A DNA stretch of 61,069 nt, counting the filler, from Asterionella formosa (lineage: Eukaryota), in NCBI GenBank assembly GCA_002256025.1. It is 18 parts of 18 records of this genome, joined end to end, with 100 filler letters (N's around TTAATTAATTAA, not from the genome) between each part and the next. Parts side by side here need not be neighbours in the genome. Positions count along the whole stretch, not along the records: positions 23,827 to 27,129 come from NKIB01014268.1; 17 more parts are not named here. The stretch is one strand, 5' to 3'. Positions 3,307 to 54,290 of this stretch are shown one piece after another. Both the position numbers and the translations under genes were made by a program. How positions within the stretch are numbered: the stretch's first letter is position 1; each line of letters opens with the position of its first letter. The notes under the pieces are model-generated. The model was not told the origin of the DNA. It ran no database searches and saw nothing but the letters and a program-made list of their open reading frames with translations.

Positions 3307-3406
3307 NNNNNNNNNNNNNNNNNNNNNNNNNNNNNNNNNNNNNNNNNNNNTTAATTAATTAANNNNNNNNNNNNNNNNNNNNNNNNNNNNNNNNNNNNNN
3401 NNNNNN
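3307..3406. other. Artificial contig linker (44 N + TTAATTAATTAA + 44 N). The same linker recurs starting at 6712, 10117, 13521, 16924, 20326, 23727, 27130, 30529, 33927, 37323, 40718, 44113, 47507, 50899, 54291 and 57681
   Basis: An identical 100-nt spacer with stops in all six frames occurs about every 3.4 kb. Intervening contigs shrink almost monotonically from 3306 to 3289 nt. Confidence 0.99.
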
Positions 3407-6711: not shown

Positions 6712-9700
6712 NNNNNNNNNNNNNNNNNNNNNNNNNNNNNNNNNNNNNNNNNNNNTTAATTAATTAANNNNNNNNNNNNNNNNNNNNNNNNNNNNNNNNN
6801 NNNNNNNNNNNTTCGTTTCTTTCACTACTTGCTAGGGACACATGTATACTATCGAAGTAACCGATAAAAGTGTTAAGCAGTTGTTGTACAAAATCGAAAT
6901 TAATACAGGTAATCATTTTATCATGGTTTCTTATCATGGTAATAATGGAAAATTTCTCATGTTTGATCCATGAGCGATTGAAAAAATATGATGTGTAGGC
7001 AGAGAGCATACCAGGTACCTGGTACCATGTACATTATGTATATATATATATACCTGCATGTGAATATACCGCTACATATAGTATGTATTCCCATACGTGT
7101 GCACTCACTCATTGGCGGGGGTTGGCAATCATGTTCTTTGATCCCTCTCCTGTGCTCGCATCTGACCTCGACGGAATCTACTCTATTTTTTTGATTGGGG
7201 GAATGAGTTTGACCCTAAAATAGTTCCTGCCCAATCGAATTCTAGCATCATATTGTGCCACCCCCAATACTACCATTTTTTGTCGTAGTGGACAACCGGT
7301 AGTAAAAATAGTCTGTGAGGAGTGGGCGGTGCTGGTCAGAATAGAGGTGACTACTCCTTCCAGGAACCAAGGTGTTGAGCAGAATTTTATTTGCCCTGCG
7401 GTTTTCAGGATTTAACAAGTAGGTTCTGGGTAATTATGAGCTTAATGATGAGTGTATCTATATTACTAGCTCCTTGTCCAAGGGGACTCACAAGGGTCTT
7501 GATGAGAAGGGCATGTAATAGGTGTCAAGAGTCCATGCTAGGTGTCATGTTTTAGCCTAGCATTGGTACGTCTATTCTAGAGATACATCTGTACCAATAG
7601 TTATCATGTAACGTATAGCTGCGGGTACATAATGCAATATGTACTACGAGCTCCATACTAGTAACCGTGTGTGTAACATCACGTACTTATCATGATCACT
7701 ATCTTGTACATGTTTATGTACTACGTATGGGTTTCATGGTAGTCGTGTGCGTAATGTAAAAGGGTACACCTTTCACTTATGGTTGACGTGGTACCAGGTA
7801 TACATACACATTGTGTATTGTGTAAATCTCTACCGGTACAGTGAGAGAAAACAAGTATATGGTCTGTATAGAGGAGCCTATAAGGTTAACGTTATATAGG
7901 ACTTATACCATCTAATGATATAGTATATCTAGCGTGGTACATACTGTACCATAGGTCATTATTGAGGCAATAAATCGATGGAGAAAAGAAGAGAGAACAA
8001 GAAGAAAGAAGAGAAAAGGGGGGGGGGGTTTAGTGGGTATGATTCTAGGATTTAACGGACGTCAATGATCCATTTGCTCCTTGAGTTGGTGAAGGAGGTT
8101 ATGGTGGGGCGTTTAAATTGGATAGCTGGTCTGAGGTTTAACATTTGGTTTGGAAAAACATGAACTCGAAATTTTATTTTGCAAGTCAAATGGTCGGAAC
8201 ATTCACCCCCTTTTCCTACTGTTTCCATAAGCTACCTTGAAGAATGTGAGTGAAATACAAGAAGCAGGTGACACGTTTTGTTCAACCTATGTTGGGTCTG
8301 TGATTCCTTACGCTTCCTGATATTCCTTAAGTTTCCTGAAATTTATAGTCATTTCCTGAAATTCATAGGAATTTCCTGAGGAAAGTCATAGTCATATGCT
8401 TTTGTATCCTCGTTTTTGCAATTAGAAGAATTCCGCTAATTATTTCGCTGAATCGTGCTATGTATGAACTGAAGATGTCCTTTCGTACTGTTTATGATAA
8501 CATATGACGCTGTCCGGTAACACGTTGTCCGTATCAGGAAAATGACCGCAGCTTGCATGTACTGCAACCAGATGCGGTCATTTTGCTTAAATAAACAATT
8601 TGATATGGGATAAAGAGAATGCAAAGTTACCGCAACTTCCTTTTTTTTGTACATTGATTCTAAAATACCAAGTACCTGGTTCCAGTTACCATGGCGGTAC
8701 TACCAGCTACGAGCACATCATAAATACTTTGTACATGTGATCCACTCCTCATCACACTACGACGTATGTACTATACAGATAGTGCTGTCTGTTGCTCAAG
8801 AAGAATCAACCGGAGCATTGATTGTTGCAAACTGGAGTACCAGTAAATGTAATTAACAAAAAAACCCAATTTTATTTAGTGCTTCTACGGCGATAGTACC
8901 GACTGTAATTCGTGTACTATTTTATCTCTTGTCATTAAACTTTGTTAGTCTTCATACACTGGGGAGTGAAACGCCCTCCCCTTTCTTTGCCTGTCCTTTC
9001 GGACAAAACAAGTCCTCTCTTGACAATAAAATCAAAAAGGCGCAGATGACTAGATATATTCTAGGAAAAAATCGCCACAGCGAAATCATCTCAAACAAGA
9101 AGGAGATGCCTCGCAAAACGTCTTGTTGTTTTCTTGTGACACTTGTTGAGCACAACAATCCCTCAATGTGAATTCATAATAGGTATCATGTAGTATATTT
9201 ATATATATCTATACATAGAGATTGAACAATTGGAGACAACAATGAATGTCCACCTACCCTGAGCTGCTTCCTTTCGGAGATATGGCCAATCAATATCATG
9301 GTGGAAGCTAGCTGTCATGGCAGACGAACCCATGCAAACAATTAACAGAAACAAGTGTTCTTGCGACAACATTCTTTCAACAAATAGCGCTTGGGTATTA
9401 ATATTATGTGGAAGTGGGTGGGTATTGGAGCAAAGATGATTGAACAAAACTACTCACGTCATTGTTATAGGAAAAGGAATGAATAAGTGGCTGGTCCTGT
9501 CGCCATGCACGGCATGAGTGCTAGCTATGTATTTTGTTTTTAGAATGGCTGATCGAGTAATCTTTGACTCATTTATTTGGAATCAATGTATTATAAAATG
9601 ATGTAGTAGTGAAGAACAATGCGACGGCTTCATCTCGTCATCAATGGATGGGGTGGGTACTTTGTTGTACCATTAATTCTCACGCTATCAAAATCTCATG

Positions 9701-18220: not shown

Positions 18221-19585
18221 ATGACAATTATAAGAATGAGATATTCGTCGAAAGAGAAGCGAAATTCAAGAGTCGAAGTATGGTTATTACTTTCAACTAT
18301 CGCATTTGCTATAATTTCCTTCGTCCATCATCACTCCCAGATTATTATTCTCAACGATCAGACACCCCTCATCGACTCAAGCTTCCATAATGGAATCAGT
18401 ATCACCAGCAGCAGAATACCATCTCTTGAAATTATGCAACGCCAGCTTGAACAGCTTTCCATTCGATACTACGTCCACTCAGATCCACGGATTTCTCAAC
18501 CAAACATTACTGAAAATTTGATTCTGAATCGAGGTCGTGGTCGTCTCAAGGAACGATTCCGTCCCGAAGCACTTTTAGAGCATGCCGTATTGGAGGCACT
18601 TGAGAAGCATCCTCTTCGGACACGCATCGCACAAGAGGCTCAATTATTTATCATCCCGCTTCGTGTCGGGGCCAGCGTCATACATCGTGGCTTGCATATG
18701 CCAAAAGTAATTGCCGCACTTTCCGAGCACGAACATTGGAATTATGGACACGGACATGTGATTGTAGCCTTGAATACAGCTACATTTACCTATGAGCATC
18801 GGTCTGATGTAGCTAGACATGGATTCAACAAGGAAATTTATGATTTTTTTGCCAATGTAACGGTCGTCAAGTCTTGGGATGACTTTCGCTGTGCCCAACT
18901 TACTCACAACGCAGCCATTCGACATGACTACAAGGGACTATTTGCGGAATCCAAATACACCATGTCTAGATACGGATTTTCATTGGGACTTTTGGCGGAA
19001 CCATCGTTACCCTACCTTGAAGCGTCCTATACAGATAAATTCGAACATGCATCCAATTGGATCTTTTATCGCACCCGTGTCCATACTTCGTTTTACAACT
19101 CGACACCCTATCGACATGCTCCACTGTCGGTCAGTAAAACATCGATTCCTTTTAACCAATCATGTATTGGATTTGATTTGAACAAGACAGAATGGTTGCA
19201 GCAATTTGTGAATTCCAAATACTGTTTGGCGATTCGAGGAGATACACCTCATACACATGCATTAATCCGTGCCGTCAAGGTGGGATGTATCCCTTTGATT
19301 GTGAGTGATTATTATCCACTGTATGCACCAACATTCTCATCAACAATCGATATGAGCCGATATAGTATTTTCATTGGTGAAGGAGCCTTTATGAAAGACC
19401 CAGCAGGGGCCTTGATGGGTGCCTTGGCACAAAGTCAAGTGGAAACCGAGGCCAGATTAAGAGAGCTGCGGTTTGCTCAGCGAGTACTTCTCTACGATCA
19501 TCCCAAAAGCTTGTTCGTTCAGGCATTCATGAAGGAAGCTCTGTTGGCATCAGAACTACCGCCAAGTAAGTATAGCTTTGTATAG
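18221..19585 (+). CDS. Exostosin family glycosyltransferase (GT47), type II membrane protein
   Basis: N-terminal TM segment (VWLLLSTIAFAIISFV), HPLRTRIAQEAQLFIIP and SKYCLAIRGDTPHTHALIRAVKVGCIPLIVSD (exostosin signature). The start codon is uncertain (18221 or 18236). Confidence 0.88.
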   Translation: MTIIRMRYSSKEKRNSRVEVWLLLSTIAFAIISFVHHHSQIIILNDQTPLIDSSFHNGISITSSRIPSLEIMQRQLEQLSIRYYVHSDPRISQPNITENLILNRGRGRLKERFRPEALLEHAVLEALEKHPLRTRIAQEAQLFIIPLRVGASVIHRGLHMPKVIAALSEHEHWNYGHGHVIVALNTATFTYEHRSDVARHGFNKEIYDFFANVTVVKSWDDFRCAQLTHNAAIRHDYKGLFAESKYTMSRYGFSLGLLAEPSLPYLEASYTDKFEHASNWIFYRTRVHTSFYNSTPYRHAPLSVSKTSIPFNQSCIGFDLNKTEWLQQFVNSKYCLAIRGDTPHTHALIRAVKVGCIPLIVSDYYPLYAPTFSSTIDMSRYSIFIGEGAFMKDPAGALMGALAQSQVETEARLRELRFAQRVLLYDHPKSLFVQAFMKEALLASELPPSKYSFV

Positions 19586-19844
19586 AAAATCAAAGTAACA
19601 CTATTGACATGGCCGGAGAATTCTACTGAAGCCACATGTGGAGCCGTACGTCGTTGTTTACTTGTTTATATATTTTATAAAAAGTGAATTACGTAAATGT
19701 CAGACTGCGCTTTGTTGGTGATGAAGTCAAAACGACATATGAGGGATGTTTATCTGGACTGATACCTATTATACGATCATATTTTGGTTCCCTGTCTGAT
19801 GTCCTCATGTGATGAACATTATGCATGTCATGTATCTTTTTCAT

Positions 19845-20268
19845 CTATTCAAAGTCTGGAATGTCATCAATATCTTTAACATTCAATCCACCCAAAAACC
19901 AGCCGACTCTTCTCTTATCGGTGATATCTACAATAGATGCAAGAATGAAAGAAGCAAAAAGTCAGCCCAATAGCATGGAAAAGTGATTTCATTGGTTCGG
20001 AGTACATACCAATCTTCTTGTCCTTCTCTGGGGCCTTGACATTCTTCAACGAAACAGTCTTGACCTTCTTTTCATCCGATCCGCGACGGCTAGTACTGGT
20101 AGAACCCACTTCGCTGATCTTGTCAGCGGCTTCAAACATCATTTCGCCAAGCCACGGGTTGATGTATGGGTCTTCGAGAAAGAAATTGTTGAACATGCGA
20201 GATACTCTCATTTCGATCGCGTGAACAGCGAGAAAGGAGGCAAAGAGACAGATGATGATTGAGCGCAT
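19845..20268 (-). CDS. Small secreted hypothetical protein, 2 exons (intron 20009-19928)
   Basis: Signal peptide MRSIIICLFASFLAVHA. A GTATGT..TGTAG intron gives the C-terminus DITDKRRVGWFLGGLNVKDIDDIPDFE-stop. Confidence 0.6.
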
Positions 20269-20425
20269 AATGGCAAAGATTGCGTCTGTGATGATTCCAA
20301 TACGAAGTCCGGCAAACTATTTGTTNNNNNNNNNNNNNNNNNNNNNNNNNNNNNNNNNNNNNNNNNNNNTTAATTAATTAANNNNNNNNNNNNNNNNNNN
20401 NNNNNNNNNNNNNNNNNNNNNNNNN

Positions 20426-23400
20426 GAGGAGGGGAGTCCGATAACTAACCTGACAAGCTCAAAAGGAGATTGGAAGGTGTGTTTGTTAAAAGAGTGATTA
20501 GATTAAGTTAATATAGAAGAACGATGATTTATGCATAGGTACTGTCAGACAAACAGACACAGACATATACTGACACGTCATGTAAAGAGGTGATTCACAA
20601 CATCCCCCCCATCTCATAACAAAATGAGATAAAAGGAGTAGAATCAATGATTGTCAAAGAACTGATTTGTCAGGCCGTGCAAGCGTGGCGACCGCACGAT
20701 GACCAGCATCGATAAATTGATATCCCATCATAGTCATGCAATGAGCACGTAGAGTAGAATACGGGAGTGCCTTGGTAAAATGGTTGGCTAAATTATGAGC
20801 AGACGAGACCCGGGTAAAATGGGCTCTGCCATGACAGAAATTTTCTTGCAAAGCCTGCGTTTTTGTAGCAATATGACGGACATTGCGTGTTAATTCACCC
20901 GCATGCGCAATGATTTGTGCAGCAGAATTGTCTTCTCCAATGGAGATAGCATCATGATAAGGAATTGACATATCCTCCATGTAAATGCGTAGCCACAAAA
21001 CATGTTTAGATAAGGTGGTGGCTGCATCAAGTTCTGCTTCAGTAGTATTGTATGCTGTTGTACTTTGTTTGCGGCACAATGTAATTACTGCAGTATCATT
21101 AATCATAATGACACCACCAGAATATGCTAACCAGTCAAATATGGCACCTCCAAAGTTAGCATCCGCATAGCCTTTGGTGGTAGGTGCTATTCCAAAAAGA
21201 GGTTTGCTGATATTAGAAAAATGTTTCTGTTCTTGAAGCGTGGATGATAATGAGGTAGATACTGATGAAGTGGAGATCAGACTAGTCATAATACGGGGCA
21301 TATGCCAGAAAGTTTGATCTTTGTCAAATTGGTGAGCTTCAACGCTGATGACAGTAGGTTCACCCAGCCACGGAGCAGCTTGACTGATATGTGAAACCGA
21401 AACCGTGGAACCCCTAGATACTTTTCTGTTGAATGCAAGTGGAATATCCAGATATTGACGGAGGTGTTTTGCAATTTGTAGTAACGCATCAAAATGTAAT
21501 GATCCAGGAGCATTTTGATATTGAGCCAGCCTTTGTACTGCTGTTTGTATATCAAGCCTGGTCCATTGGCATAGGTGTTGAAATTGCCCCAACAACGTCC
21601 TATATTCAAAGCCATAAAGATGAATCGCTTTATGAAGTTCACTTGGAGAATATGGTATACAACTAGCAAGTGCTTCTTCATGTTGTACGCCACCTGAGCA
21701 TAGGAATCATGTTGGTTCTTGTTTATCCCAGGACAAACCATAAACATATTGAAGAACGTCATGAACCATATGAATTTGGTCAATTGTCATACAATTGGAA
21801 CTAAACAGGAATCTGAGACCAAAAAAATGAGAGACTTGCCCCATATTGTGTATCTTCCAGTGAGATTCAAGAGTAGTAACAATATGGTTGTATGTATCCA
21901 GTGATGAAGTTCCTATCAAAATATCATCAGTGGCTCTGGCTAAGATGACATGACATTGATTAATTGTACCTTGGTAGATGCATTGATCTGCGCGATTTTT
22001 GATTAGGCCCAGTTGTCCACAGAGCACTTTATCATCATGTTCTCCCCATTCTCGAGAAGCGGGTCCATATAAGAGACATTGAGCCATGAGTCCAATAAGT
22101 TTAATGGAGACCTCAGCTTTTCCGTTTTGCGAGGATGAGTACGCGCCAGTGGGCTCCACCGAGATGTGCAGCAGAGACAACTCGGTCTTGAGCGTGTGGT
22201 TAGCAAATAATTCCCCATCCATACGGATACGGCACACACGGTTGCCAGTCCGGATCTGCAAGTGTTGGATGATCCAAAGGATGAGTTTTGCTGGTGTAGT
22301 GTGTGATTGACGACAGAATGTCCAACGATGATTAGAGATTGCCTCTGTGACTACTAAAAAGCATTTGAATCCACGGCAGGATTGTTTACCATAGAATCCA
22401 AAATCCATATGGATAAGACTTCCAAGAACCTTGAAAGGAGATTCAACAGTAGGACCTCTGGATAAGGAGGGCAGTTTTTCTTTGAAACAGATTGGACAGG
22501 AGAATGTGTCTGGTATAGGGACATTCAAAGGGAGACCCATAACGCTTGTTCCATTGAGCAATAATTCCATAGCACGCCGGCCTGGGCAGCCCATTCGAAG
22601 ATGAATGAGATGATAAAGTCCTGATGGTTTCATGGTTTTGATAAGGTCAATAGCAGAGGTGGTAATCCCTAAAGACGGTTTATGTAAATGGACAATGATG
22701 TAGTCTGCATCATCAAAGGTCAATAACTTGAAAGAATATTCTTTCCCGTTGGGAAGTTTTAACCATAACAGGTTACCTGTGGGACGAAGTTGATGATCAG
22801 CCTCATAGCCTAGGCATTTGAGAGCACGAATACTGAGGGAGCGCCGCCGATAGTGTGGCATTTCCACTGTGTTGGGAAGTGATACCTCCAGTTCAACAGT
22901 TCTATCTGATGAAATGAAACATGGATAAAGTGTGCCAATGTATCCAACTTTATCGGCGTCACCAAGTTTAGCAGTCTGGCATAAAACAGTGGAGCTCACA
23001 ACATTCTGTAATTCGTTGCTCATGCAAGTGACATTCCCATTTGCTCCAGTGTCCACATGCATCAAAGTTTCACCTTTGTGGAGGTTTGCAGCAAATTCCA
23101 GACCAGTGGTGGATGAGGAAGTGGAGGAGTGCGGTAGAGAGGAAGAGATATGTGTAAGAACTTCAGTGGGATCAGAGTTTATCAGAGCTAAGTCATCAAC
23201 AACCTTGTGTGAATCACAAATATGAGCAACAAAAGCGACCATGCCTGTGTGATAAACTGGGGAAGATGTGATAACCTGATCATTGTCAATATCATGAAGT
23301 CCAGGGGATCTAGGAGTGGGGACATTCCAGCTGTATTGATGAGAAAATGGTGCAATGTTATACATGTTCTCTCTCAATGTGATATGTATATCATCTATGA

Positions 23401-23726
23401 CAGACTGAAGGTGTGTAGGCTCCGCATTCTTGTCCTCAGGCATGGTGGAAATAGCCTGAACTGTAAAGAGTTGAGTATTTGCTGGAGTGGTGTCTCGTGG
23501 ACCAGAGCAACCAAGAGAACCACAAGGAGGTCGAGCAGGGGTTGCATCAAACGGAGAGAGCCGAGCAATTTTAGCAGAATGTGCTTTGACAAGTAGTTCT
23601 TTTCGGTTGTCTGAGAGTCGATTGAGATGCCAACAATCGGGCGTTTTATGGTTACTACCAAAACAAATACAACAACAGAGAGGGTCATGTTTGACACCAC
23701 ACCAAGGAAAGAGACACATTTGGTGA
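20426..23726 (-). mobile_element. Degenerate Ty1/copia (CoDi-like) LTR retrotransposon: Gag knuckle, protease, integrase, partial RT, RNase H, PPT and partial 3' LTR (20602-20426)
   Basis: CICFGSNHKTPDC knuckle, HVDTGAN protease, HLRMGC..CPIC, IHMDFG, RMDGE and SSQNGKAE integrase motifs, DQCIY..RATDDIL RT, and GYADANFG, NTTEAE, GEDNSAA, NLANHFTKAL RNase H. The PPT GAGATGGGGGGGA (20615-20603) precedes TGTTG. There is a frameshift near 21710. Confidence 0.93.
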
Positions 23727-23826
23727 NNNNNNNNNNNNNNNNNNNNNNNNNNNNNNNNNNNNNNNNNNNNTTAATTAATTAANNNNNNNNNNNNNNNNNN
23801 NNNNNNNNNNNNNNNNNNNNNNNNNN

Positions 23827-25715
23827 GTGGTTCCGATCACCATGTTCTCCACCATTCTCGCCCCACTTTGAATATCCATCACATCTTTGCGTTTCTGGGA
23901 AGTCCTGGCTGGTAATTTACACAAGAATTTAAGATTCTTTTCCATTGGGCCTCCATTAAAAACCTGTGGACTTCCGAAACGATGAATGTTTCTTACAGTA
24001 TGCATCTGTTGATGAAACTTCGCAAGCTTCCATCCCTGAGAGGTTGTTGTTCTCGGGCATTCTTTTACCAGCTTAGTAAAATAGTAGTTGACAACGCTTT
24101 GGTGTTCCTGTGGTAAATTTCCCACATCAAAACTCTCTTTACTAAACCAGGTATTGTAGCAGAGCATCCCTTCGAATAGACCTTGAAAGTTTCGAATTTC
24201 TTGATTGGTCATACCACTTTCTTCTCGGCAGATTTTGATTCCAGCATCACATGCCATGACAACACAGGCAATAAGCATCACTCCGATTCTTTCGTTAGCA
24301 GTTATTTTCGTTTTGCAACCATGAAAGCCGAAATTGAAGGAACATCAAGGAAGGTCTCGGTCACTCTGGTGAAGGAAGAGTTTAGATATTTTGTTGAAAA
24401 ACTGGTCAAACAGTTTTCGATTGGAATTACCCTTCACTGTTTTGGGGCGCCCAATCATATAAGAATATAGCTCCATGAGGTGATACATTATTCCTTCTTG
24501 AATGGAATGGAGTTTTTCAGGAGGAATGTGCCCATTAACACCAAGAGGATTGCCACCAAAACACAACTGATACCAAAAGGGATAGATGAATCTTTGGCTC
24601 ACATTATCCAATAAATCTTCTATGCCCCGGATTAATAGTTCCTCGTAATCAATCTGACCTACAGGACTGCATTCATGAGATGGATTCTCCGTTTGATCAA
24701 ACGGACAATCACATTCATGACACATTCTGGCAGTCTTTAGATATGTTTTCTTTCGTCCGCATTGTCCATCTAAACCTTCAGCATCACCGAGAATTAGACC
24801 AACCGGAACTTTCACATTAAGTGTAAATTGATTGCCTCCGAAATTGAAAATGTGTTTGAATCCACCAGCTTGTTGGACATTCTTGACCCCCTCAAGAATC
24901 ACACCAAGGATAGCGTGATAATCGGATTCCTTTTGATCAGGGGTTAGGGACTGGATTTCAGATAGACTTGATGAGGTCAGCTTTGGGATCAATCCGATTG
25001 GCCGCCATGCATTGACCTTATTTCTCACATTGGTAGTAAATATACCAAGTGACATTAGGAGAGGCTCCATTGTGTACTTTCCTTTTTCAACCGTCTGTGT
25101 CTTGTCAATAAAGAACATGAGTGGAACAAGGAAGTCATTTGGCTGAGAACATAAATATTCATGGGCATCTATCCACCAGGTACCAGTGTGAAATTCGGAT
25201 CTGACACTGGTGGGATGTGGTGCTTTACACGGATTGACGAAATCAAATGACACATTTTGTGGTGCCATTAGTATGTCATTTGTCAAGAGATTCTTAACCT
25301 GAGCCATAAAATCAAAACATACAACATCAATCAGTTTTCCATCATGCAATATGGCCTGTTTCACCTGGGGAGTTCAATCATTATGTTAAATCGGTTTTGA
25401 AATTCTTTCAGAACAGTGGTCCTCCTGGGAGGACAAGATTCAAAAATGAATCCAGCTTCCTGAGCTGTGCTGCAGAAACTCATGATTTGATCATACATAA
25501 AAAGAAGAGAACGGGTGATGAGCAAAAGACTAATCAGTTGAGACTTCATTACATTGCCAACTGAGAATGGTATACCAGGATCGGCGGAGGAAAACCTTAT
25601 CCCTGTGGTGCTCAGGACTGGAATAGTATTGGTTTCATCCTGTACCACTATTTCGCTTGTATTTTCTTCATCTTCTTTTTGATCAATGTCATATATATTG
25701 GTATGATCGCCAAAA
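23827..25715 (-). mobile_element. Plavaka/EnSpm (CACTA-related) transposase pseudogene
   Basis: FDFMAQVKNLL, EFHTGTWW, LVPLMFFIDKT, WRPIGLIP, GDAEGLDGQCG..CHECDC, EKLHSIQEG and KFHQQMH..IHRFGSPQVFNGGPMEKNLK..KLPARTSQKR. Frameshifts lie near 25362 and 24345. Confidence 0.8.
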
Positions 25716-26234
25716 TGTAGTGTTTGAACATAGTAGGGTCGGAGATGGGGAAGGGGTATGGGAACCAACCGGGAGGGGAACAACCCGATGAACAGAACAA
25801 TGTGTGTTCCTCCACATGCCATTCCATCCGAACAACCCTCCATCATCTCACATTCAACGAATTTTCAGAGACATTATATTTTCCCCGGGAAAAGAACCAA
25901 TTCTTACCACACTACGGAACTTCTCCGGAAATCAATGTACTATCCAAAGGTTGATAATCGCTTATAATCGCCCTAAAAATAATGGTAATTATACATCACC
26001 ACGGAAACTGAGATCGGACACCACTTCAGTCAGTACTCACCTACTTACTATACAACTTGATACTGAACGGGACACATCAACCTCTACGAGGTCCATGCTA
26101 CCTTCCCCTCCCACTATCAATACTGCTTCCGCTCCTGGTGAAATTTCGCAGCCATCCACGCCTGCGGGGGGGCGGCGGGGNNNNNNNNNNNNNNNNNNCC
26201 CCCCCCCACACGCACCATGACTTAAATAAAACAA

Positions 26235-26318
26235 GACTACAGATTCAAGCCAACTGATGAAGCCCCTTCAGGCGAAAAGTAACATTAGTCTCATTACTTT
26301 TTGGCAACTTAAGTAGTC
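26235..26318 (+). ncRNA. Type I hammerhead ribozyme
   Basis: Stem I GCCAA (26249-53) / TTGGC (26301-05), extended by GACTAC/GTAGTC. Core CTGATGA (26254-60) plus an extra A. Stem II GCC-CCTTCA-GGC, then GAAA (26274-77). Stem III AAGTAA/TTACTT. The NUH cleavage triplet UUU ends at 26300. Confidence 0.85.
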
Positions 26319-26358
26319 ACCTCATCGTCGCTTGGATAATAGTCGTTGTAGCCCACAC

Positions 26359-26383
26359 CCCTACCCTAACCCTAACCCTAACC
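26359..26383 (+). repeat. Interstitial telomeric repeat CCCTA(CCCTAA)3CC
   Basis: Three perfect CCCTAA units at 26364-26381 plus partial units on either side. Confidence 0.8.
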
Positions 26384-26738
26384 TGAGACCATTGAACTTC
26401 CCACCATAGTTTTTTTACCTGCAAAACTGTGGGATCGCTTTCCTGAAATATCACAAGTTGGTCTCACATTATTTTCCAATTTAATGATGTGGGATCCCAG
26501 TGAACGATGGACTGCTCAACAGGCAAGCAAGTCGATTTAATTTGATGAATTGCCCATGCCAACACCAGACAGTGCCAAGCCAAGATTCCATGACAGAAAA
26601 TAGACAAATGATTTACTAATATTTAAAATGAAATTAAATGAATCAAATCAACACCAGCAGATACTTGGTATTTCACTACTGGCAGCTTTAAGAAAGAAAA
26701 TTAGTATGCATGTTCACAAATCATCAGAGCAAAAATGA

Positions 26739-27129
26739 TTAATCACAATCTTGCTTAATTGCGGAACAGTAGCTACCACAGTTGCAAATCAGTGGTGGGC
26801 AAAAATATATTGTTGCAATATTACATGCTTCTGTTGGAACTGGCCCTGTAAAATTGTTCTTTCCAAAATTTAATGTGGCTGTCAAGAGAGTGAAATTTTA
26901 GAACAAATGGTCAAGTAATGTAAGTTTCAGATAAACAAAACTTACTCAATGAAGACATGAGACCAATTTCTGTGGGAATTGGACCAGTAAACATATTGGA
27001 TGGAATCTGAAAATCATTGAGAATTGTCAAGAATCCAATCTCTGTAGGAAGTAAACCAGTCAACTGATTATCATGTAGATACAATTTCGTTAGATTTGTC
27101 AAGTATCCAATCTCTGTTGGAAGTGTCCC
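26739..27129 (-). CDS. Leucine-rich repeat protein, C-terminal part (intron about 26945-26879)
   Basis: LxxLxLxxNxLTGxLPTEIG repeats. The last exon ends in a Cys-rich cap (CNIATIYFCPPLICNCGSYCSAIKQDCD-stop). Confidence 0.82.
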
Positions 27130-27245
27130 NNNNNNNNNNNNNNNNNNNNNNNNNNNNNNNNNNNNNNNNNNNNTTAATTAATTAANNNNNNNNNNNNNNN
27201 NNNNNNNNNNNNNNNNNNNNNNNNNNNNNAACGGAATATCATAAA

Positions 27246-28999: not shown

Positions 29000-30371
29000 A
29001 GAATTTCAAGCAAGGGACTGATATTAAACATTGCATTCCTGTTAGAAGTTGCTCATCGCCTTCAGCTATCCAAATTGCAGTTATCAAATCTTTCTTTCAA
29101 TAGCACGGCTTTCATTTCTTCTTTGACATATATCCCAGGTGCTTCAACCAAGTAGGTGCTTAAATATCTTATTGGCAGGAGTACAAATAGCCAACACGGA
29201 TCCTGTAGGGAAAATTCTTCGACATTATGGCTGTAAATTTCAATTCCTTTCCGCAATAGATTGTCGTGTTCGAGGGTCCGCTTGAAACGCCTACGATTTA
29301 CATATGTTTCTTCAATGTCGGCAATGTGCAGGCTTTTTGCGAGTTCGAATGGGTCGGGAGGATTTCGTTTCAACGCTAGTTTGACAGCTAGGAGGTTCTT
29401 CTGGAATGGCCGTCCCTTGATGCATGGCATTGTAGTTTCGTCGTGGTCGCTTGTTACCAACAACAACTGATGAGGTGACGTTGGGTATATCCTTTGTACG
29501 AAGTCGAGTTTGCACTGTTTTATCCGACAACGATATAATTCTGGTCGATGCAGGAGCTTTCGGTTCTTTAGAGGTCTTGGTCTTGTTTGCAGGAGACAGC
29601 TTTTCCTGGAGTTCATTTTTATCTTTTGAAAAGCGCTTGTAACGCCATTTAATGGCAATCGCCGAGCGCCTTGGAAGGTACTTATCACATATACCTTGGT
29701 AGTTACGGCCAAGCTTCGCGATGCCCTTCAAGAGTAAGTCATCATCTTGCGCTGTCCATGATTTTCGTGACAAGTGGTCCTCTTTCTCTGTTTCAGGTAC
29801 TAGCGATGAATGAAATTCGTTTGAGACCTTTGAGATTGTATTGGCTCGTCGTTTGAGGGTTGAGTGAGGTCGATTGGGGTCACAAGAAATATTCGCTTGT
29901 AACCTGGGCTTGACACAATTCTCTGTGGCAGACACACAGTCAACATCCTGCGTTCGATCCCCTGATATTGACTCGTTACGAACACTTGATGATGGAGATA
30001 ATGATCTGTACCCCTGAAAAGTTCGGGGCGACGAAAACGAAGATACGGCAGGTGTAGATTTAATGGCAAAGCGGACTCCGTAGACAACGAGGTTAAATAT
30101 TTCTTCCTCGTCATCGTCTCCGACGAACGCAACTGGTCGCAAGCGAGCACCCGATGGTTCGTCCTTAACGTTTTTTAGGCCAATAGGACGGCCTTCCGAC
30201 CACTCGTCTTCGTTTGTTTCGTCGTTCTCCTGAAAATAAATATTGAGAGTTGGGTGAGAGATGTGTGAGGAGAACGGTGCAACAAGAACTCCTGTCACGA
30301 AAATAGGCATTGCTTACCTCCCCCGAAGCATCGTCACTAGGATCATAAGAAAATCGCGCAGAGGAATTCAT
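29000..30371 (-). pseudogene. Myb/SANT-repeat protein gene with one intact repeat; downstream repeats frameshifted or degenerate (intron 30317-30230)
   Basis: RKSWTAQDDDLLLKGIAKLGRNYQGICDKYLPRRSAIAIKWRY is a Myb repeat. Further repeats RFKRTLEHDNLLRKGIEIYSHN and IWIAEGDEQLLTG lie in other frames after about 29320. Confidence 0.65.
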
Positions 30372-37322: not shown

Positions 37323-38706
37323 NNNNNNNNNNNNNNNNNNNNNNNNNNNNNNNNNNNNNNNNNNNNTTAATTAATTAANNNNNNNNNNNNNNNNNNNNNN
37401 NNNNNNNNNNNNNNNNNNNNNNGAAACTTGTCTGACTACATGCTGCAAATCCCATTTCCTTTTGATCCGATTCTGTTTTATCCATTTTGATTTCCTAATT
37501 ATAATAACAATGAGAAGGAATTACTTGCTCGTTTGCCATGTTTTGTTTATGTCTCAACAATGCAGTTCCATTCTATTTTCACTTACCATGAATAGACATG
37601 ATATATTCTGTCACACAGGTTTTCCCATCACAATGTGTCCAACAATCCATTTTAATTGTTCACTGTATTAACTAATGGGAAGGAATTTTGTGTTAGGCTT
37701 GTCTTGTCTAGCTTTCAATACAACAGGCAGTTCCAATCATGATGATATGGTCACTTACCGCAACGATGATGCGAATTCTTGTTCAGTTTCCATATTCCTC
37801 AATAATTCGTGGAGACATTGATTTTCAGAAATTCCATAAACTCTTTGCATACAATTACCCTGATAGATATAAAAGGATGTGTTACTTATGTTCTAACAGC
37901 TGATTCTTCTGAGCATTGATCCAACGACAGCACTTACCACGACCGTCATTTCTTCACATTGATTTTTCCCCCACAAGTATGCATATATAGGTAAGCAAGT
38001 AAACACTTGAAGATAAAGCACGCATTGAATTACTGTCAACCCAATAATTGAATATTCTGACATGATATTCCATTCTTGACCTACTGTGGCTTTCGGCCTT
38101 CTGTTCATTACCATTCCTTATTGTGTTTCCAATGAAGTCGTAAGGTATCGGTAAATGGATCTGTAGCTGTGCGTAATAAACTGTTTATCTCTATGTTGCT
38201 TATACATTTCATGTAGTGTGCACGCGAATGAAGATGTACACACGAGTCCCAATAAAACTGAGCCAACCGTATATGTATATATGTATTTGTATGTTTGAAT
38301 ATTTCAAACACCCGTGTACCGGTACTGTCGTACACATAGATCTGAATATCATCAATATTACCGATAATAATTTTGATTTTATTCAATGTTGAATGATTTC
38401 ATTTGTTTTGAATTTAGTCTGTAAAAATTTCGGTAAGTGACATTAGATTATATACAATGCTGTATGAGTTCATTATTTACCACGACCAAAAATAGAGTAT
38501 AAATATAGGTTGTACAACAATTCAGTACGGAGTGATAGTTAATGAAATAATTAAGCCCCGTCATGGATGTGATATATAAATAACAAAGGGTTAGGGTTAG
38601 AATGCGAAGTATAAATATGTACTGTGGTTGTACAAGATTTGATGTAAAATGATCTTAGTACGATAACTTGTTTATGATCTTAATTCTAGTGTTTGTATGA
38701 TCGTGG

Positions 38707-53325: not shown

Positions 53326-54290
53326 TTAATTTGGGTGATCATATTTGACTAGCGTTTTTGGTGTGGCGGCTGTACCAGTAATCGGCGTTGTAGATGTAGT
53401 GGAGGACAAATCTAGATCAGTGAGACTTGTCAAGAGTCCAATCTCTGTGGGAAGTGTGCCATTGAAAGTAGTGGAGGACAAATCTAGATAAGTGAGATTT
53501 GTCAAGAGTCCAATCTCTGTGGGAAGTGTGCCAGTGAAAAAATTTTCTAACAAACCAATGGACAAATCTAGATAATTGAGACTTGTCAAGAGTCCAATCT
53601 CTGTTGGAATTGTTCCAGTGAAAATATTTCTGGACAAATCTAGATAATTAAGACTTGTCAAGAGTCCAATCTCTGTGGGAAGTGTGCCAGTGAAAATATT
53701 GTCATACAAACCTAAATCAGTGAGACTTGTCAAGAGTCCAATCTTTGTGGGAAGTGTGTCAGTGAAAATATTTCTGGACAAATCTAGATAATTGAGACTT
53801 GTCAAGAGTCCAATCTCTGTTGGAATTGTTCCAGTGAATTCATTGTTGGACAAAATAAGGGAAGAGAGATTTGTCATCAGACCAAACTCAGTGGGTAGTT
53901 TACCATCCAACCGATTAGGACCCAATGATAAGAATGTTAAGCTTGATAAGAGTCCTAGCTCAGTTGGAATTTTTCCAGTCAGATCATTTCCATTTCGAAT
54001 TTGGTGATCTCCATGTCCAAAGTTCAAATGTCCTGTAATCATTAAGTGTATAGAAAATATGAAAAATCAATGATTTGCTGGATTGTTTAGCAACCTTTTC
54101 CCTTCATTTTTTAACTTACTTAGTTTTGTCAACTGAGGCCAATTTGAACTGATATTTCCAGACAATAAAACATTGTCGCCAAAGTCCACAACAACTGTGT
54201 CACAACAAAAGGTTGTTAGTATTTAATCACACTTTTCTATCACAATTGTTATTGCCTGTACTTACAAAGATTGGTCATATTTCCAAAAAT
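53326..54290 (-). CDS. Leucine-rich repeat protein fragment with near-identical 72-nt tandem LRR units; ends abruptly
   Basis: Repeats of LTSLNYLDLSRNIFTGTLPTEIGL. Upstream short exons are bounded by GTAAGT donors. The LRR pattern breaks off at about 53396. Confidence 0.85.

Follow-up and report, generated by a model that had tools for sequence, protein, structure and literature searches.

The window analysed here comprises 61,069 nt of Asterionella formosa DNA, made up of 18 parts joined with 100-letter N filler, and adjoining parts need not be neighbours in the genome. The part derived from NKIB01014268.1 (window positions 23,827–27,129) carries, on the plus strand and in this order, the tail of a reverse transcriptase (RT) ORF, a complete type I hammerhead motif at 26235–26318, a spacer, a short tract of reverse-complement telomere repeats and a flank that does not belong to the element (Table 1). 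In this assembly the element is interstitial and not located at a chromosome end, with ordinary genes on both sides within the 61-kb window of parts joined end to end. A transposon cluster adjoins the element (20654–25864, minus strand). Plant-type leucine-rich-repeat coding sequence was found on the minus strand at 26911–27177 and at 53329–54066, and a tandem array with a 72-nt period (53403–53955) lies inside this type of sequence. Paired runs of 44 N recur every ~3.4 kb in the window (e.g., 3307–3406 and 6712–6811), with an appearance that is masking-like and not assembly-gap-like.

Table 1. Coordinates of the hammerhead, the element that carries it and the neighbouring features, counted along the whole window.
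Feature	Position	Strand	Remarks
Copia-type RT (RVT_2)	21710–23725	−	
Plavaka-type transposase	24348–25373	−	
RT ORF tail, last ~143 codons	25792–26225	+	fits an endonuclease-less Penelope-like RT; 5′-truncated at about 25789–25792
Assembly artefact: G-run, 18 N (26181–26198), C-run	26166–26201		run contigs have four letters instead
Distal stem I, 5′ strand GACTAC	26235–26240	+	followed by the 8-nt side of the internal loop (26241–26248)
Hammerhead proper	26249–26305	+	descriptor scan and covariance model R1
Proximal stem I GCCAA/TTGGC	26249–26253 / 26301–26305	+	
Core CTGATGA	26254–26260	+	extra (bulged) A at 26261, after A9
Stem II GCC/GGC, 3 bp	26262–26264 / 26271–26273	+	6-nt loop CCTTCA
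GAA	26274–26276	+	
Stem III AAGTAA/TTACTT, 6 bp	26277–26282 / 26294–26299	+	11-nt loop
Position 17 (T26300)	26300	+	triplet UUU; predicted self-cleavage between 26300 and 26301
Distal stem I, 3′ strand GTAGTC	26313–26318	+	preceded by the 7-nt side of the internal loop (26306–26312)
GGATAA box	26334–26339	+	starts 34 nt after the predicted cut; conserved in the family
Reverse-complement telomere tract CCCACACCCCTA(CCCTAA)3CC	26352–26383	+	marks the 3′ end of the element
Non-element flank: intron end and protein-kinase-like last exon	26384–26540	+	ORF 26382–26540; kinase read by eye, no family match

Assembled contigs of four public sequencing runs, labelled as freshwater, lake or algae metagenomes, were compared with the window over 25400–27129. 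Two RNA runs, X8 and X9, each had a contig that joined 26165 to 26202 via CCAA with the ORF in frame, and a matching loose end at the gap was found in X17. Since contigs of two RNA runs bridge these positions, the 18-N gap is an assembly artefact and both of its sides belong to one element. In RNA-run contigs the ORF tail was contiguous with the hammerhead, and contigs of three RNA runs spanned 26300/26301, which indicates that uncut molecules, or DNA in the RNA libraries, exist. The RNA-run contigs covering 26202–26349 all stopped near 26349, probably owing to contig breakage at repeats. No RNA-run contig covered 25400–25747, where the summed depth of the DNA run was very high, and 26792–27129 was highly repeated in all four runs. 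Mismatches to the window amounted to 4/148 and 2/88 in the 3′ UTR plus hammerhead versus 30/357 and 31/374 in the ORF tail; this lower divergence is a hint only, since it may come from one diverged copy present in two runs.

With the gap read through, the ORF ends in a TAA stop codon at 26223–26225, without an endonuclease, and the distal helix of stem I starts 9 nt later. The gap-corrected tail terminates in A-Q-P-P-T-R-T-M-T-stop, compared with AQPPAHTMT at the end of P0002, a 428-aa metagenomic protein with RT palm motifs to whose C-terminus the tail was 91% identical over 97% of its length. An exhaustive search of a representative library returned 332 relatives of the ORF tail at E ≤ 1e-3, and in full-length relatives of 623–699 aa the matched stretch was the extreme C-terminus. 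When P0002 and 14 full-length relatives were aligned, a TDKNLGP motif, the RT (palm) motifs, a thumb-like region and then the tail were recognised, with no further domain; each of the 14 full-length relatives ends within about 10–100 residues of the tail motif that they share, and GIY-YIG was not detected in them by Pfam. At the thresholds used, Pfam assigned no family to the ORF tail (129 residues before the gap), to P0002 and P0003 or to 16 long relatives, and a weak match to RVT_1 (E 0.012) appeared in one of 15 relatives. Two of the 18 proteins scanned with Pfam (P0008 and P0071) were dropped as bacterial Ig-repeat proteins with spurious low-complexity matches. A PDB sequence search with the profile gave noise only. 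A structure model of P0002 (pLDDT 74.5) matched a group II intron RT at E 4.6e-8, and also retron RTs and telomerases, with a top TMq of 0.46 to human TERT. The ESM Atlas placed P0002 beside reverse transcriptase clusters with HTH_animal and RVT_1, mostly from rotifers, which we treat as a lead only. The RT domain itself is absent from the window, where just the poorly conserved C-terminal tail was kept. Taken together, the results for the relatives fit an endonuclease-less Penelope-like RT, a label that rests on motifs read by eye, on the Atlas lead and on the modelled fold.

The original prediction had described a hammerhead with its core, a bipartite stem I, stems II and III and a UUU triplet, and all of these elements are present in the sequence, downstream of this ORF tail. 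The conserved core is complete (C3 U4 G5 A6 N7 G8 A9, G12 A13 A14, A15.1–U16.1 and a position 17 other than G, located at 26254–26260, 26274–26277, 26299 and 26300). The three-helix topology consists of an open stem I of 5 bp (with a further 6 bp in the distal helix) and of stems II (3 bp) and III (6 bp) closed by loops. Stem I is bipartite, with its distal helix lying beyond an internal loop of 8 nt on one side and 7 nt on the other. The invariant A15.1–U16.1 pair, together with stem I, fixes the register of position 17 at 26300. As had been suggested, the motif could fold as a monomer, since a stem III of 6 bp would be long enough for single-unit folding; the contact between loops I and II put forward in the same prediction is putative.

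A custom descriptor scan of both strands found this hammerhead as the single site in the whole window. Sites with stems of at least 5, 3 and 6 bp were absent from all of 300 Markov-shuffled windows, and a shuffled window contained 0.03 sites on average when the descriptor was relaxed to 4/3/3. The bare core pattern CTGATGA-N(4-30)-GAAA occurred at chance level in the window (3 matches versus 1.96 expected). Under the nearest-neighbour model, the hammerhead pairing had a free energy of −14.8 kcal/mol, compared with −16.9 kcal/mol for the alternative minimum free energy fold, which is 2.1 kcal/mol more stable; the folding energy was also unremarkable with regard to shuffled sequences (z-score −1.42, with 17/200 shuffles folding at least as well). 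No second copy was found in the window, either by a repeat search or by BLAST of 26199–26383 against it.

We then examined the hammerheads of related elements in 78 metagenomic loci encoding RT relatives, which were fetched with an alignment query and derive from the best 80 of 542 confirmed stretches. A descriptor with a stem III of at least 3 bp detected 45 hammerheads in these 78 loci (best 80 of 542), all of which lie on the ORF strand, and the opposite strand was empty. From 34 distinct hammerheads of the related loci, with the window left out, a covariance model (R1) was built. It scored the window site at 39.4 bits (E about 3e-10), and the next match in the window reached 16.7 bits. The latter, at 29462–29498 on the plus strand (E 0.008), has stem I and CUGAUGA but neither stem II nor stem III, and is taken as a chance match. 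At E ≤ 0.01, R1 matched 63 sites in the window and the 78 loci (best 80 of 542), namely 62 in related loci and the one in the window, without exception on the ORF strand. At least one match was present in 57/78 loci (best 80 of 542). Of the 40 loci (among the best 80 of 542) whose sequence extends 700 nt or more beyond the RT match, 34 had a downstream hammerhead, at a distance of 86–888 nt from the stop codon (median 284), with one at 2334 nt. Fourteen of the 78 loci (best 80 of 542) had a hammerhead upstream of the ORF, and four had one on either side. The original prediction had assigned the motif to Penelope-like elements (PLEs) as a hammerhead of type I, and this is supported by the R1 score and by the linkage of the motif to the RT ORF in relatives.

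The proposed search for covariation was carried out on these related metagenomic loci, and its outcome was positive. Over 55 distinct copies, 83.9% of the cells were paired, versus 53.4% in shuffled controls (a value as high was reached in 0/500) and 33–41% when the pairing partners were slid; these counts lean towards structure, because the alignment was fitted to R1 and the seeds had been picked by a pairing descriptor. The covariation score was 0.746, versus at most 0.132 in the controls, both-sided changes were observed in 11 of 13 pairs, and stem III was paired in 94.8% of cases, all over the same 55 copies. Cleaner controls than these pairing counts are provided by the absence of matches on the opposite strand and by the constant position of the motif. 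The distal stem I helix across the internal loop, also part of the earlier claim, recurs in the flanks of relatives, with a mean best length of 5.79 bp versus 4.84 ± 0.13 bp with permuted partners (0/200 permutations reached the observed value), and compensatory changes in it were seen between close relatives (e.g., L002 versus L006). In this family, the hammerheads occupy the coding strand downstream of the ORF, in some loci upstream of it as well, and their helices covary.

The core nucleotides G5, G8, A9, A13 and A14 and the A15.1–U16.1 pair were invariant in 55/55 distinct copies, and the extra A after A9 was present in 39/55. Stem III measured 4–6 bp in 42 of the 45 descriptor matches and 3 bp in the other three. 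For minimal hammerheads, U17 and a UUU triplet make poor substrates. The UUU triplet had been put forward as a distinctive trait of the window hammerhead; it turned out to be one case of a family-wide N-U-U site, with U at position 17 in 51/55 distinct copies, C in 4/55 and G or A in none, and U at position 16.2, which gives UUU, in 6/55. We conclude that the hammerhead is real, and that it represents a putative self-cleaving ribozyme.

The Rfam Hammerhead_1 model, proposed as a check of the prediction, gave a negative answer that was also uninformative. At gathering thresholds, Rfam returned no hammerhead match in the whole window, and at E ≤ 10 the three matches within 26150–26420 included none to a hammerhead family. 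At E ≤ 1, the Rfam hammerhead models also missed 18 clear family hammerheads in 17 related loci (L001, L009, L018, L025, L027, L032, L033, L035, L037, L041, L042, L046, L051, L052, L057, L063 and L072), and the negative result for the window therefore says little about the motif and reflects the reach of the models. The hammerhead families of Rfam, Hammerhead_1 (RF00163) among them, have the catalytic core and the three-helix junction in common with the window motif, but neither this motif (E ≤ 10) nor the 18 relatives (E ≤ 1) were recognised by them.

Between the hammerhead and the telomere repeats, the spacer carries the GGATAA box. The pattern GGAT[AT]A was found 23–57 nt after the cut in 35/59 distinct downstream flanks, versus 0/55 upstream flanks and 54/2000 random 80-nt windows. 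Many related loci also showed an ATG followed by a conserved GCGAC about 70–150 nt after the hammerhead cut.

The telomere tract consists of a perfect (CCCTAA)3CC at 26364–26383, preceded by a degenerate CCCACACCCCTA at 26352–26363, so that the predicted cut lies 51–63 nt upstream of the repeats, in good agreement with the earlier estimate of about 60 nt. The sequence CCCTAACCCTAA matched the window twice only, both times within this tract, versus 0.10 matches expected. Downstream of family hammerheads, CCCTAA was modestly enriched (7/54 flanks, versus 2/54 upstream flanks and 107/3000 random windows). A 14-nt telomere-repeat match in the opposite orientation at 38587–38600 (E 0.033) is probably due to chance. 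Element-like sequence ends at the tract, with the junction at 26383/26384. Upstream exons of the kinase-like gene were not found on the plus strand in 19500–20700. RNA-run contigs matched the kinase-like exon from 26413 onwards, with other sequence upstream, as if an intact copy existed elsewhere. The truncated 5′ end of the element has no telomere-repeat cap.

In one related locus (L053, 6915–7100), the 3′ hammerhead and its spacer of 66 nt are followed by a repeat of the spacer that begins no more than 2 nt from the cut site. Reverse transcription of a cleaved RNA would be expected to leave such a copy, but this is a single case. As regards DNA copies that start exactly at the cut site, the one in L053 falls within 2 nt and one in L068 starts 11 nt upstream, which are too few to count.

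Taking these observations together, we consider it very probable that the motif is the 3′-terminal hammerhead of a 5′-truncated, dead copy of an endonuclease-deficient Penelope-like retroelement of the Coprina/Athena type. Several observations weigh against this reading: the lack of an RT domain in the window, relatives left unnamed by Pfam and PDB sequence searches, an interstitial location, an uncapped 5′ end, the negative Rfam result, the more stable alternative fold, the poor quality of U17 and UUU as substrates for minimal hammerheads, contigs that span the cut site, and the modest enrichment of CCCTAA in related loci. On the plus strand, the copy retains four parts only: the last ~143 RT codons, a hammerhead that begins 9 nt past the stop codon, the 51–63-nt spacer with its GGATAA box and the short telomere tract. 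By analogy with the published model for telomere-attaching elements, the element RNA would pair via its C-rich tract with a G-rich telomeric 3′ overhang, which the element RT would use as primer; here, the overhang may have been that of a broken end inside a gene, from which the element RNA was copied. Priming on a telomeric overhang would account for the order of sense element, (CCCTAA)n and older DNA at 26383/26384, and the truncated-exon junction is in keeping with an old break that was healed and then became internal. The ribozyme would cut after U17 in transcripts that are long or tandem, and trim the RNA at the upstream copy. Since the DNA copy has hammerhead, spacer and repeats in one piece, the 3′ hammerhead must have been uncut in the molecule that was reverse-transcribed; a template uncut at its 3′ site implies, in turn, either that cutting is slow or that, in read-through or tandem transcripts, it acts on the upstream copy. 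At the window locus, the ribozyme would be a relic, predicted to be still competent if transcribed. With regard to function, a role in defining RNA ends or circular-RNA units had been envisaged: RNA processing is plausible for a motif just upstream of telomere repeats, but circular RNA is unsupported, because there is one hammerhead only in the window.

A first alternative accepts the same element and motif, but holds that the hammerhead acts mainly as a non-cleaving 3′ fold that presents the C-rich tract to the overhang, its cleavage being marginal or vestigial. The text of Arkhipova & Yushenova 2019 (PMC6431247) describes a ribozyme fold exposing the adjacent repeats, with cleavage as an auxiliary activity, and the uncut template behind the DNA copy, the contigs bridging the cut site and a U in place of the usual C at position 17 in 51/55 copies are in keeping with such a role. 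A mere scaffold, however, would not need nucleotides of the core that are invariant in 55/55 copies, nor a position 17 that is never G or A; the text of PMC4209133 reports in vitro cleavage for a fungal PLE hammerhead of this kind, and in 14 loci the motif lies upstream of the ORF, where telomere pairing is not expected. We therefore regard a mainly structural role as unlikely.

Far less probable still is that the hammerhead belongs to a small non-autonomous retrozyme or satellite yielding circular RNAs and unrelated to the adjoining ORF tail. Non-LTR retrozymes do contain hammerheads of type I, according to the text of a 2020 review (PMC7761336), and circular units had been part of the original prediction; the window nevertheless holds one hammerhead in a unit that is not repeated, the motif follows the RT ORF in 34/40 testable relatives (among the best 80 of 542), and ORF tail and hammerhead are joined in RNA-run contigs. 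A chance resemblance in AT-rich spacer DNA, to which the lack of an Rfam match, a folding z-score of only −1.42 and a bare core pattern at chance level might point, is refuted as far as computation can by the shuffles (0/300), by the R1 score and by a position and strand shared with 62 relatives, and its probability is negligible.

The reading that we favour, a 3′-terminal hammerhead in a dead copy of an endonuclease-deficient PLE, agrees in many respects with known systems. According to Cervera & De la Pena 2014 (PMC4209133), all PLEs carry hammerheads in their terminal repeats, and those of the telomere-associated PLEs of fungi and protists, which are endonuclease-deficient, belong to type I and have a large helix III. 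The text of that study also reports a Serpula lacrymans hammerhead that cleaved as a single unit, and an extra A after A9 in PLE hammerheads. The window hammerhead resembles these fungal and protist examples in being of type I, with a long stem III, the predicted capacity to fold as a single copy and an element devoid of endonuclease. It differs from them in that, according to the text of the same study, no recognisable tertiary contacts between helices I and II were seen, whereas the window hammerhead has a bipartite stem I with a recurring internal loop. The hammerheads of endonuclease-bearing metazoan PLEs are described there as minimal, without a helix III and in need of two copies, which the window hammerhead would not require. 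The original prediction had presented the contrast with such minimal, dimeric hammerheads as unusual; this does not hold, since monomeric ones with a large helix III in telomere-associated PLEs had already been published (PMC4209133).

A further parallel is provided by telomere-attaching PLEs, for which reverse-complement telomeric repeats are reported directly downstream of the 3′-terminal hammerhead (PMC6431247, Arkhipova & Yushenova 2019; PMC8557442, Craig et al. 2021). In the text of both papers, the repeats are proposed to pair with the G-rich overhangs of chromosome ends, cleavage is regarded as an auxiliary pre-processing step, and copies are said to be often 5′-truncated and later internalised. 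As in the Athena/Terminon elements of bdelloid rotifers (PMC6431247), the window shows the order ORF, hammerhead, short reverse-complement telomere repeats and older DNA, and both systems share 5′-truncated copies and the lack of an endonuclease. The rotifer repeats are (ACACCC)n or (TCACCC)n according to that source, compared with CCCTAA in the window, and PMC4209133 describes the helix III of the rotifer hammerheads as small and palindromic, unlike the 6-bp stem III with an 11-nt loop found here. The window element also differs from Athena/Terminons, as these are described in the text, by its 51–63-nt spacer with a GGATAA box between cut and repeats. The combination of a hammerhead with reverse-complement telomere repeats in endonuclease-less PLEs, and monomeric hammerheads with a long helix III, are therefore already published. 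The family-level U17, the GGATAA box and the invisibility to Rfam are modest additions, in a comparison made with the text of the prior papers.

A more far-reaching proposal, which we put forward tentatively and think improbable, is that the family constitutes a widespread hammerhead variant, for which there is no model yet, in endonuclease-less PLEs of aquatic eukaryotes, and that U17 serves as a slow-cutting kinetic switch. The traits on which such a variant would be defined are the near-fixed U17, the bulged A after A9, the bipartite stem I and the GGATAA box before a telomere-complementary tract. A slow U17 might let the 3′ copy stay uncut until telomere priming, while the upstream copy would still be trimmed. 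If true, the choice between RNA processing and telomere attachment would be governed by a kinetic switch built into the element.

With regard to the genome of A. formosa, the window site would mark an old chromosome break or telomere-healing site that now lies in a gene-rich region. At the level of the family, since Rfam misses ribozymes of a kind present in 57/78 loci (best 80 of 542), annotation pipelines will not report them. The in vivo role of PLE hammerheads was called a mystery in the text of a 2020 review (PMC7761336), and a ready alignment backed by covariation, with a near-fixed U17, could help to test that role.
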